IMG/VR virus record: IMGVR_UViG_2721755660_000001
DNA length: 64,000 nt
Strand: one strand, 5' to 3'
Source: a virus
Lineage: Duplodnaviria; Heunggongvirae; Uroviricota; Caudoviricetes
The position numbers were made by a program. Below are positions 27,001-30,000 of this stretch, in pieces (position 1 is the stretch's first letter; every line of letters begins with the position of its first letter).

Positions 27001-30000
27001 TTCTTACATTAAAATCAAGTAAGTCCGACTTTAATGCAAAGCGCGGACTGTATGTTGCCAGTATGATTAATAAAGCTTTAAAGGGGCGTTTTAATTATGG
27101 TCAACAGTTATCGAGTTCCAAACTCAGAGATGGAGAATATTTCATCTCATTACCAGTGAAAAATAATGAAATTGACTGGTTTTTTATGGATAATTATATA
27201 GAAGAGCTGGAAGCGGCCCATATAGAAGAGCTGGAAGCATACCTGATAGCTGCTGGGCTGAGTGATTACCAACTAACGGAAAAAGATTATCTTATCCTGG
27301 AACATTTTAAAAATATTGAATTTTCAGGCTTTCCTGTTACTGAGTTATTCTCAGTGTGCAATACAGGAAACATATTGTCTAGAGACATCATAGAAAATAG
27401 TGGGGATGTTCCTTATCTTTGTGCTAGCCGTGATAATAACTCTGTTAGTTCTTATATCGCCTATGATGACTCACTCTTGGAAAAAGGGAACTGTATTTTT
27501 ATTGGTGGTAAGACATTCGTTGTAACTTATCAGGAGCGAGACTTTTTTTCAAACGACAGTCATAATTTGCGACTCTATGTTAACAATGAGGATGGAAGGA
27601 CAAAGTTTGCTTATTTGGGCATTATTTCATGTATTTATAGGTCTATTTCACATAAATATTCATGGGGGGATAGTGTTAGTAATAGAAAAATTAAGAACGA
27701 TGTTATTTGGTTGCCAGTGAAAAATAAGTCACCTGACTTTTGTTATATAAATGACCTTATTTCAGTTGTTCATAAGCTTGTCATTAAAGATGTTGTCCAG
27801 TACGCAGAACGCAAAATGAACGCATACAGGCAAGCTATAACAAGTCGCGGTTATGATGATTCTGGTGTCAGTTAAAAAACATTTTACAATCGTAAAAATC
27901 CTCATATCATGATAAGAATGGTTACATTGCCACGCTGCTTAACCCGCCGATGCGCGGGTTTTTTGTATCCGGAATTCTGTGGGTTACCCTGCCCCCCTTA
28001 GAAAGGTGCGACAGCAATTAATAACAAAATCTTAAAAATCGCATATGGCACTATTAGTTTTCTAAATATTGTATATTTTAAGTATTGCAGGATAACCCTG
28101 TAACGAAGTTTGCGTAACAGCATTTTGCTCTACGAGTTTGCCAGCCTCCCCCAGTGGCTGGCTTTTTTATGTCCGTAGCGTCAAAGCAGCAATGGCGCTG
28201 GGGCGTCGTGCAATTGGCGTTGAGCTGGAGAGCGGGCGTTTTGAGCAGACGGTCAGGGAAGTTCAGAATGTAGTCAGTCAGAACGGATGATATTGCAGAA
28301 TTAGTTACGTACCGTTATTATCCTGCGCCCGGCCCTTTAGCTCAGTGGTGAGAGCGAGCGACTCATAATCGCCAGGTCGCTGGTTCAAATCCAGCAAGGG
28401 CCACCATCACATACCGCCATTAGCTCATCGGGATAGAGCGTCAGCCTTCGAAGCTGGTTGCGCGGGGTTCGAGTCCTCGATGGCGGTCCATTATCTGCAC
28501 ACTGCGTTGTTAGCTCAGCCGGACAGAGCAATTGCCTTCTAAGCAATCGGTCACTGGTTCGAATCCAGTACAACGCGCCATATTTATTTACCTGGCTCGC
28601 TTTTGCGGGCCTTTTTTGTATCCGCGCCACGCCCGGCGCATATCAAAAACCACAGAGCTTTTCAGGGGGGAGCTTACTGGATGGTCAGTGTGACTTTCTC
28701 TGTGGGCTGGTCACCCCCGGGCGCAGGCTCACCCACTAAAAGGAAAAGTCACGATGTTTGGTATTTTCAAAAAGAAAACCCGCAGAGCAGCAACTGAAAT
28801 TAAAAAGTTTGAGAAACGCGATCTGGCACAGGCGGTTATTAATGCTGCCTACCTGGTGGCCTATGCAGATGGTGAATGTGAGACTTCAGAGAAAGCGAAG
28901 ATCGAACAGGTATTACGTAACCAGCCAGCATTGTCCGCATTTACGTCAGAAATTAATGCCATCAGTGCCACGATCACAGGTCAGCTTGACACCAATTTTA
29001 AAATTGGTCGTCGTGCAGCGTTGCGTGAAATTGAAGATGTGAAACACGATACGCGTGAAGCGGAAGATGTGCTGGATGTGGCGGTGGCCATTGCTGAAGC
29101 AGATGGTGAAATTGAGCCGGAAGAGCGTAAGGTTCTGGAAGAGATTGCTGGTGTTCTTGGCCTGCGACTGGAGAACCACCTGTGACGGTAAAACTGCGTC
29201 TGGCCGCTGTGGCACTCCTGCTGTTTCTGGTGGTGATGGTGGATTTCACCAGCAGGATCATGTCGGTGCTGGCGGATGGAGTGCTGGTGGTCGGTATTGT
29301 GGTGGTGCTTTTTCCTTTGGTGAAAAAGGACATGCCAGGTAGTTAACCGGGTATCAGTTACGCCCAGAAAATTTTAATTGTCTCACAATTCAGTCAGTTG
29401 ACAGTTGCCTGTCAGACTGAGCATTTGTTAAAAAAATTTCGCATGGTGAATCCCCCTGTGCGGAGGGGCAATCAGCAAGTAGGTATATGGGATAATTGCG
29501 GATTCAGGTGCTGATACTGAATTCACCGGGAGGCACCCGGCACCATGCAGGTAAGCAGTGTAAATGTTTACATAAGCAAATCCCCTCACCGGAGGGGATT
29601 TTTTACGCCCAAAAATTCCGCGTATGGTGTTGAGATTGAAAGCCTGGTGCTGGAGATAAATGTACCGACATCATGATAAAAAAACGCCAGCACAGAAGAG
29701 AACGGGAAAACGAGTCTGACGCTGGCGTGGGGATATTCCCCGTGGAGAAATGATATGTAACACATATCGGGAGTATTTTTATATAAAAATGATAACCATT
29801 GTCAATCATAACGGTCGGGAATGATGACGTTTATGCATCAGAGCCATCAGTAATTAACGGGTGGCTTTTTTATTGTTGTCAGCTTCCGGATAACGGGAGA
29901 CGGGGTATGTACCAGATGGAAAAAATCACAACAGGTGTGTCATACACCACGTCAGCGGTGGGGACGGGATACTGGTTACTGCAGCTGCTGGACAAAGTCT

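Follow-up and report, generated by a model that had tools for sequence, protein, structure and literature searches.

A tciA-tciB cassette (TerB-family and DUF3927 proteins) in the stxAB slot of a Shiga toxin-negative, 933W-type prophage

Introduction

The names tciA and tciB were first given in phage P1, in 2004; P1 and the P1-like phage-plasmids carry the genes in the arrangement tciA-tciB(-tciC), tightly coupled and close to tRNA genes. Here, we consider the same pair in a 64,000-nucleotide (nt) stretch of the IMG/VR virus record IMGVR_UViG_2721755660_000001 (Caudoviricetes), hereafter "the window", which holds a prophage negative for the Shiga toxin (Stx) genes. Two open reading frames (ORFs) of this prophage are almost certainly tciA and tciB, a conserved two-gene phage accessory cassette: the two families and their order are those of P1, and the products have 143 and 54 amino acids (aa) vs. 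141 and 54 aa in P1. The P1 proteins also keep the acidic motifs of TciA and the DF[TS]...S...D motif of TciB, at an identity of 41% over 143 aa for TciA (tblastn) and ~43-53% for TciB. The regulatory setting differs, since tciAB of P1 belongs to the C1-controlled early ban operon whereas here the pair would lie on a Q-dependent late transcript. A tblastn search with P1 TciC returned a best E-value of 0.07, with no match near the cassette; tciC is not a defining member of the wider tciAB family, most non-P1 members of which also lack it.

Closer relatives are found among stx-negative lambdoid prophages, e.g., JLK-2012 from O55:H7, PPyecE_EH1910, that of Escherichia coli 08-00022, and many more. 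They carry the same cassette in the same place, i.e., after a tRNA cluster and a terminator and before an STnc100 small RNA (sRNA) gene and the lysis genes. The cassette is 100% identical to that of 08-00022 and to TciA of PPyecE_EH1910, and 85% identical (nucleotide level) to that of JLK-2012. Its annotation in Escherichia phage JLK-2012 and PPyecE_EH1910 reads TciA/TciB, and the Prokaryotic Genome Annotation Pipeline (PGAP) labels 100%-identical cassettes in many complete genomes as [quoted passage not shown]. Hence, at the level of public annotation, neither the pair nor its naming nor its location is new. The prophage described here differs from other tciAB lambdoid prophages in its 933W-like, short-tailed backbone and in the absence of the nanS-p esterase gene, present in 29/32 relatives (here and below, such context counts refer to 80 related IMG/VR contigs).

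The third system for comparison is stxAB of the 933W-type phages, which lies in the same slot with the same flanks (pR', tR', a methylase remnant, ileZ-argN-argO, a terminator, the downstream sRNA segment, S and R) in phages whose structural genes are closely related to those of the window. The two kinds of cargo are unrelated in sequence, function and codon use.

Finally, TerB of the terZABCDEF operons (Klebsiella, PDB 2JXU) shares with TciA its family and fold, a near full-length alignment and the conserved acidic motifs, at an identity of ~20%. A membrane partner is expected in both cases: the multi-pass TerC in the ter operons and the 54-aa TciB here. A TerB protein alone is not expected to confer a tellurite phenotype. 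No Ter-family match (TerC, TerD/TerE, TerZ/TerA) was found among the genes within 5 kb on either side of tciAB, which comprise a restriction-modification pair, tRNAs, the sRNA, the holin, two unknown ORFs and the endolysin; lacking the operon partners, the locus does not belong to the ter systems. The tciAB pair is not a toxin and does not amount to a full tellurite-resistance determinant.

The cassette in the stxAB slot

The tciAB cassette sits exactly in the stxAB slot of a stx-negative, 933W-type short-tailed prophage. The features of the slot are as follows.

28594..28620, plus strand: intrinsic terminator after the tRNA genes (7-bp stem, 6 GC pairs, T-run), the left shared joint
28629..29374, plus strand: 746-bp cargo segment specific to tciAB phages (blastn boundaries)
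28754..29185, plus strand: tciA, encoding a 143-aa, predicted cytoplasmic, all-helical protein of the TerB fold
29182..29346, plus strand: tciB, GTG start, encoding a 54-aa predicted hairpin of two hydrophobic helices (DUF3927)
29412..29610, plus strand: STnc100-family sRNA gene (Rfam RF02076, 148.7 bits), the right shared joint

The first-pass annotation of this DNA had proposed that Q, the tRNA trio and the lysis cassette reproduce the stx-flanking architecture of 933W-type phages, that stx itself is missing, and that a TerB-like gene with an overlapping ORF for a small hydrophobic protein of ~54 aa fills the toxin position. All of this was confirmed. The window interval 27868-28628 aligns at 93.5% identity (blastn) to the 933W segment comprising pR'/qut, two terminators, the tRNAs and the pre-stx terminator, and homology to 933W picks up again at 29375, ~37 bp past the stxB stop. 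The boundaries 28628|28629 and 29374|29375 agree in blastn comparisons with both 933W and the Stx2a phage Stx2_12E092, in which a 1319-bp stxA2B2 segment takes the place of the 746-bp segment found here; the guanine-cytosine (GC) content of the latter is 0.50 vs. 0.44 in the stx cassette. Searches of the whole 64 kb with StxA2 and StxB2 (tblastn) and with the stx2 cassette (blastn) gave a best E-value of 0.25 and no stx remnant.

Stx2_12E092 is at the same time the closest relative by structural genes: its match to the 25-kb structural half (window 33000-57900) has a coverage of 89% and an identity of 95.7%. A coverage of 80% or more of this region is reached by 172 phage records, the best of which are Stx2a phages (95.7% identity). 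The prophage accordingly displays the backbone of the Stx-converting phages (933W-like, Sepvirinae), i.e., Q, pR'-tR', ileZ-argN-argO, P21-type S and R and a short-tailed structural module, and falls outside that group by the absence of stxA and stxB.

Both edges of the slot coincide with discrete elements. On the left, the terminator at 28594..28620 is the annotated pre-stx terminator of 933W. In the tciAB cassettes of other prophages, homology begins at 28594-28597, also where tRNAs are not nearby, and the terminator is sometimes duplicated around additional inserts. On the right, the STnc100 gene begins 66 nt after tciB; it is full-length (model positions 1-206 of 206, with 148.7 bits against a gathering score of 47) and has a terminator of its own (hairpin and T-run at ~29578-29606). 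The segment following stxB matches window 29375-29550 at 79.8% identity in 933W and window 29375-29469 at 96.9% in Stx2_12E092. According to a recent preprint, STnc100 is related to the PasD sRNAs of enteropathogenic E. coli prophages. Since these flanks are shared, the cargo could be swapped by homologous recombination, with the terminator and the sRNA gene as the likely joints of exchange. The stx site thus appears as a bounded exchange slot, reaching from the post-tRNA terminator to STnc100, in which unrelated cargo alternates on near-identical backbones. Such a slot helps to explain the origin of stx-negative relatives of Stx phages, as well as how the toxin could return by recombination.

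Distribution of the pair

The tciAB cassette was matched in 1313 of 5426 complete E. coli genomes, with a median of 2 matching places in each (789 reach a coverage of at least 80%, at megablast sensitivity), while the stx2 cassette was matched in 601. The arrangement is therefore real but ordinary, being commoner in E. coli than stx. The idea of a "replacement pair", put forward in the first-pass annotation, stands insofar as the pair is indeed in the stxAB slot; the direction implied by the word does not follow from the data, in which tciAB and stx alternate in the slot and tciAB is the commoner of the two. None of the 80 related tciAB contigs contains stx, and no tciA was found in deposited Stx-converting phages. 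STnc100 follows tciB in all 69 contigs with enough sequence, and the Ile/Arg tRNA trio, or a two-tRNA form of it, precedes tciA in 57 of the 80, usually 170 nt upstream.

Every context found for tciA was a phage or a prophage, which answers the earlier concern that the gene might belong to the host core. Conservation of the TciA-TciB pair, key residues included, extends over proteobacterial classes (Gamma-, Alpha- and Desulfovibrionaceae hosts), and homologues are also carried by phages that are strictly lytic (N4-like, Pseudomonas and Erwinia jumbo phages). With roughly one complete E. coli genome in four carrying it, often more than once, and with further copies in lytic and jumbo phages, tciAB ranks among the most widespread phage accessory pairs of putative function.

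TciA, TciB and their pairing

The relationship of TciA to TerB, for which the lack of homology in a hidden Markov model search would have been fatal, is clear. The Pfam TerB profile (PF05099) is matched in two stretches at an E-value of 1.8e-16 (60.9 bits against a cutoff of 24.4), with residues 26-138 on profile positions 2-109 of 118, and the solved Klebsiella TerB 2JXU is matched over residues 14-137 (phmmer, E=9e-8). The phrog_632 family, labelled "tellurite resistance", is matched at 1.7e-69 over residues 1-143 of 143. The AlphaFold (AF2) model, built on 22 homologues, has a predicted local distance difference test score of 87.2 and is all-helical, as expected of the TerB-type fold. Two other profile matches were set aside: DUF533, a TerB-related family, scored below its cutoff, and so did zf-HC2, a chance match to a cysteine-poor acidic motif.

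TciA contains two acidic motifs of the form DG-x5-E (D39-G40...E46 and D117-G118...E124), and in the 22 homologues, at identities down to 50%, each of their residues D39, G40, E46, D117, G118 and E124 is either invariant or conserved to at least 90%. These motifs may bind a metal or another ligand. The N-terminus, MFGIFKKKTRR, is hydrophobic and then polybasic, a composition that would be typical of peripheral membrane binding.

TciB matches Pfam DUF3927 (3.2e-16) and, over its full length, phrog_1470 (1.4e-24), the label of which reads [quoted passage not shown]. The turn between its two helices holds the conserved D21, F22, S28 and D32 (alignment columns). The tciA stop and the GTG start of tciB overlap by 4 nt (GTGA), and tciB is predicted to be translationally coupled to tciA through this overlap. 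Both frames are intact and have ribosome-binding sites, that of tciA being AAGGA after a leader of ~130 nt. Both genes are under purifying selection, which is strong in tciA: the ratio of nonsynonymous to synonymous substitution rates (dN/dS) is 0.013-0.044 for tciA (dS ~0.65) and 0.2-0.27 for tciB, the dS of the pair being ~0.3-0.7.

The adjacency of the two genes is persistent. In 78 of the 80 related loci tciB adjoins tciA, and so it does in lineages with just 41-50% TciA identity; this arrangement is seen in phages (P1, D6, N4-like Salmonella phages, Erwinia jumbo phages, Fostie and an Actinobacillus phage) and in prophages of Pantoea, Serratia, Pectobacterium, Aeromonadaceae, Bilophila and Desulfovibrio. 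Two proteins, P0005 (197 aa, E. coli PA11) and P0066 (170 aa), unite both domains (PF05099+PF13064) in a single chain; the joining is due to a frameshift where the genes overlap (GTGA), and either genuine fusion or sequencing error may lie behind it. In Pseudomonas phage AF, a P. juntendi prophage and Ebordelon, TerB is followed by an unrelated small membrane protein instead of DUF3927; this Pseudomonas partner has one hydrophobic helix and a conserved C-x-W-Y-G-Y-Q-T-E-R motif, which suggests that the membrane partner of phage TerB is replaceable. Because of the purifying selection, the persistent adjacency, the fusions and the substitute membrane protein of Pseudomonas, the TerB protein probably acts at the membrane, in a complex with a small anchor or partner.

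Transcription, codon use and the tRNA trio

The late region around the slot is of the 933W type and comprises the following features.

23196..23621 (about), plus strand: antiterminator Q gene, 933W-type (phrog_79, 1.2e-46)
27883..27910, plus strand: pR'-like late promoter, TTTACA-16-TATCAT (promoter scan, 10/12)
27941..27967, plus strand: tR'-type intrinsic terminator, just 3' of pR'/qut (terminator scan)
28178..28290, plus strand: 3' part of a DNA methyltransferase gene, a remnant conserved in Stx phages
28331..28406, plus strand: tRNA with a CAT anticodon, ileZ (ARAGORN; Rfam 72.5 bits; 76/76 vs. 933W ileZ)
28414..28490, plus strand: tRNA-Arg(TCG), argN (ARAGORN; Rfam 53.6 bits; 74/77 vs. 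933W argN)
28504..28580, plus strand: tRNA-Arg(TCT), argO (ARAGORN; Rfam 70.1 bits; 76/77 vs. 933W argO)
29907..30122, plus strand: holin S, P21-type (class II; PF04971, 1e-32)
31220..31753, plus strand: endolysin R (lysozyme) with a hydrophobic SAR (signal-anchor-release)-type N-terminal segment (PF00959, 2.9e-24)

The ninG-ninH-Q segment of 933W aligns to window 22613-23573 at 83.6% identity (blastn), with differences in both the final ~16 codons of Q and its spacing to pR'; the 426-nt gene that PGAP calls "antiterminator Q family protein" in identical segments has its end at the position equivalent to that of Q here. The pR'-like site and the tR'-type terminator align to the annotated pR' (L002 3778-3805) and terminator (L002 3838-3860) of 933W. 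A consensus scan of the interval between the post-tRNA terminator and tciA (28621-28753) detected no promoter-like site of at least 9/12, which is weak negative evidence. Because pR', tR' and the post-tRNA terminator match those of 933W and no promoter-like site precedes tciA, expression of tciAB is likely late and Q-dependent, like that of stx2.

Since the CAT tRNA matches ileZ of 933W, so annotated there, it is of the AUA-reading tRNA-Ile2 type. The single mismatch of argO to its 933W counterpart is the base 3' of the anticodon. The argN copy has the weakest tRNA score of the window; 28 of 56 related contigs having the flanking CAT and TCT tRNAs give no ARAGORN call for it, and PGAP labels it "tRNA-OTHER" in strain 08-00022. 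This gene may be decaying in many prophages.

The first-pass annotation had called for a check of AUA, CGA and AGA codon use across the prophage. For tciAB, a link to the trio through these codons fails: tciA contains 0 ATA, 1 AGA and 1 CGA codons and tciB 1 AGG, as compared with 15 ATA and 6 AGA among the 319 codons of stxA2 and a frequency of 6-9 per thousand for these codons in the whole prophage. The tRNAs are not there for tciAB, because the pair is nearly without their codons, and a role of the trio in serving its codon needs is ruled out. CGA is concentrated instead in the repeat of the upstream restriction-modification gene, which holds 27 CGA codons.

Proposed function and alternatives

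The reading we favour, to which as a whole chain we assign a rough probability of 0.45, is that tciAB forms a membrane-anchored TerB module protecting the inner membrane of the phage-producing cell. The pair would be made mainly once Q lets RNA polymerase from pR' pass tR' and the post-tRNA terminator. TciA would be held at the cytoplasmic face of the inner membrane by its own hydrophobic and polybasic N-terminus and by TciB, a combination that would parallel the TerB-TerC pairing of the ter operons, and divalent cations, or else some small ligand, bound to the acidic motifs would act as sensor or cofactor. So assembled, the module would condition the inner membrane of the producing cell until the holin fires. 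Its likeliest form would be the exclusion of superinfecting phage DNA or the tolerance of pore-forming or depolarising insults, though either of these specific roles is held only tentatively. The stress- or membrane-related function put forward for the pair in the first-pass annotation is plausible.

This reading is drawn from several sources. A role in lytic growth is supported by the homologues in strictly lytic phages and by the location of the P1 genes in the C1-repressed ban operon. The ter operons are reportedly associated with phage inhibition and with resistance against pore-forming colicins (PMC7371120), TerB is reported to act together with the membrane protein TerC (PMC12054061), and Iyer et al. 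proposed that the standalone TerB of Erwinia jumbo phages counters superinfecting phages (PMC7824862).

A number of points weigh against it. The ter-operon phenotypes toward phages and colicins need partners of the TerC/TerD type, which are absent here. An interaction of TciA with TciB, like the binding of metal, is deduced from conservation, gene adjacency and knowledge of the families. Each TciB helix is short (~14-15 strongly hydrophobic residues), so that the topology and the side faced by the aspartates are uncertain. Some expression may take place in the lysogen, e.g., by readthrough from a tRNA promoter. Among the PADLOC defence models, TciB matched none and TciA had no credible match, the one hit being PDC-S48 (E=0.0028) with no accepted stretch. 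The literature on tciA/tciB, DUF3927, prophage TerB, and TerB with superinfection yielded annotation mentions, one CRISPR interference (CRISPRi) result and one comparative-genomics hypothesis, with no functional experiment. The CRISPRi screen found P1 tciA, tciB and tciC to be non-essential (PMC10695390), which fits an accessory role and is silent on mechanism.

The pair could instead regulate the timing of lysis, with TciB and TciA modulating holin triggering or membrane energisation in an antiholin-like or pinholin-accessory manner. The triggering of P21 class II holins depends on membrane potential, and the neighbouring holin belongs to this class. Moreover, temperate phages from four groups of hosts have the pair placed immediately between Q and the genes for holin and endolysin; these are the lambdoid prophage here, Escherichia phage Fostie, Actinobacillus phage pPE4 and Klebsiella phage 1 LV-2017. 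However, the Q-to-S interval is a general cargo site which also receives stx and nanS-p, so position is weak evidence, and 933W-type phages without tciAB lyse normally. Elsewhere, the pair is remote from lysis genes: it belongs to the early ban operon in P1, stands amid replication and nucleotide-metabolism genes in N4-like and Pseudomonas phages, and sits in a tRNA cluster in Erwinia jumbo phages. Overall, a lysis-timing role seems unlikely.

Lysogenic conversion, i.e., tellurite or metal(loid) resistance or envelope-stress resistance made in the lysogen to the benefit of the host, is suggested by the database name and the TerB family membership, and the acidic motifs would suit cation binding. 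The ter genes of Klebsiella respond to Te(IV), Zn(II) and Mn(II) (PMC12054061), and jumbo-phage Ter genes have been suggested to add xenobiotic resistance (PMC7824862). Yet the minimal tellurite unit consists of TerC-TerD plus TerZ or TerA, not of TerB alone (work cited in PMC12054061), and no other ter gene is near, the neighbours being tRNAs, the sRNA and lysis genes. The terminator directly upstream and the lack of a promoter-like site before tciA speak against expression in the lysogen, and homologues occur in strictly lytic phages, which are never lysogenic. We therefore regard a resistance function of this kind as improbable.

A function linked to the tRNAs themselves has also been considered: the pair may belong to a tRNA-cluster module coping with host or colicin attack on translation, or may simply be co-mobile with tRNAs. 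Same-strand tRNA genes occur within ~1 kb of tciA in several unrelated lineages, namely at about -170 nt in lambdoid prophages (Ile2/Arg/Arg or Asn/Thr/Gly), on both sides of tciABC in P1 (tRNA-Asn and tRNA-Thr upstream, tRNA-Ile2 275 nt downstream), and around the pair in Erwinia phage ChrisDB, a jumbo phage where it is embedded in a large tRNA cluster. The association recurs in D6, Pseudomonas phage phiK7B1 and prophages of Franconibacter, Bilophila, Desulfovibrio and Paracoccus, and among the loci compared clusters within 1 kb outnumber those at 1-10 kb despite the much larger far span. A species-level genome scan yielded 23 loci, sufficient for pair conservation and too few for firm tRNA-linkage statistics. 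On the other side, most other lineages (N4-like phages, Fostie, pPE4, PMBT3, Ebordelon and prophages of Pantoea, Pectobacterium and Serratia) are without a tRNA within 2-10 kb, the pair hardly uses the trio codons, and neither protein bears a nucleic-acid-binding signature. A simpler account is a shared accessory region in which tRNA 3' ends and terminators act as recombination joints, and we give a tRNA-linked function little credence. An extension of the same idea, in which tciAB would be a membrane module of broad conservation, working with phage tRNA clusters to shield the phage-producing cell from membrane-depolarising or translation-attacking weapons of the host or of competitors, appears just as doubtful; such weapons may include abortive-infection pores and pore-forming or tRNA-cleaving colicins. 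If it were true, there would be a functional and not an accidental reason for the pair to recur next to tRNAs in lambdoid, P1-like, jumbo and Desulfovibrio phages.

Lastly, a neutral passenger, kept merely by its location between two recombination joints, would agree with the non-essentiality in P1 (PMC10695390) and with the loss of the operon in about half of one P1-like element subgroup (PMC9603915), but is hardly credible given the strong purifying selection (dN/dS 0.013-0.044 at dS ~0.65), the conservation of the pair and its key residues across proteobacterial classes, and the intact frames, ribosome-binding sites and coupling.

Other features of the late region and the prophage

Three further departures from the 933W layout went unnoticed in the first-pass annotation: a 4.3-kb insert between Q and pR', a 1.1-kb insert between the holin and endolysin genes, and the absence of nanS-p. 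Their features are listed below.

23652-23826, plus strand: hok/sok-type toxin-antisense locus, directly after Q (Rfam sok, 118.4 bits)
24151-27875: Type IIG restriction enzyme-methyltransferase ORF, 856 aa (PADLOC REase_MTase_IIG, 6.7e-232), together with a specificity subunit at 26781-27875
30126-30767: 213-aa ORF, phrog_1085, in the holin-endolysin insert
30777-31145, reverse strand: 122-aa ORF, phrog_1853, in the holin-endolysin insert

The holin gene S shares 88-94% nucleotide identity with its counterparts in 933W and JLK-2012, and the endolysin gene R is 90.9% identical to R of 933W; the endolysin N-terminus reads MNTKIKYGLSAAVLALIAAGAPAP. The two are neighbours in 933W, whereas here they are separated by the 1.1-kb insert with its two unknown genes, which has a GC content of 43% and is shared with E. 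coli 08-00022 and 8 of 32 related contigs. In 933W and 29 of 32 tciAB relatives, nanS-p (a YjhS-like sialate esterase gene) and the next ORF lie between the sRNA and the holin gene; here, both are gone and ~290 bp are left (window 29611-29836). A sub-threshold Esr41-like match (39 bits vs. a gathering score of 102) falls on the minus strand at 29676-29766. Further upstream, the methyltransferase remnant is annotated by PGAP in identical segments as [quoted passage not shown], and in strain 08-00022 the gene is full-length (1059 nt) upstream of the same tRNA trio.

The insert between Q and pR' contains the hok/sok locus, annotated by PGAP in identical segments as "Hok/Gef family protein" and accompanied by a strong promoter-like site at 23618-23645, and the Type IIG restriction-modification gene with its specificity subunit. 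The 5' end of the Type IIG ORF is a 7-bp tandem repeat, GACCAGC, in ~73 copies (24160-24669), which encodes PATSDQR in every frame; across six genomes with the same segment, the copies number 58, 64, 73, 79, 83 and 89. Of the three phases, two have an upstream ATG each and the third is startless, while the PGAP start is a weak TTG located 3' of the repeat. The gene looks like a slipped-strand phase-variable restriction-modification system in a Stx-type prophage, and its repeat resembles the heptanucleotide switch of neuO in prophage CUS-3 (PMC9659370). No paper mentioning the GACCAGC unit was found in the literature. This phase-variable-looking gene is more unusual than the tciAB cassette.

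In the early region, the minus strand at 14260-14447 holds a C4 antisense RNA (Rfam, 78.9 bits) next to isrK (Rfam, 64.8 bits), the P1/P7-type antirepressor-control module within a lambdoid prophage. The start of the prophage adjoins a tRNA-Arg(CCT) gene (3400-3474, minus strand) and an integrase-sized ORF (3595-4839), which fits integration at argW, a known integration site of Stx and other lambdoid phages. The best matches to the segment from Q to the tRNAs come from O111:H8 and related strains.

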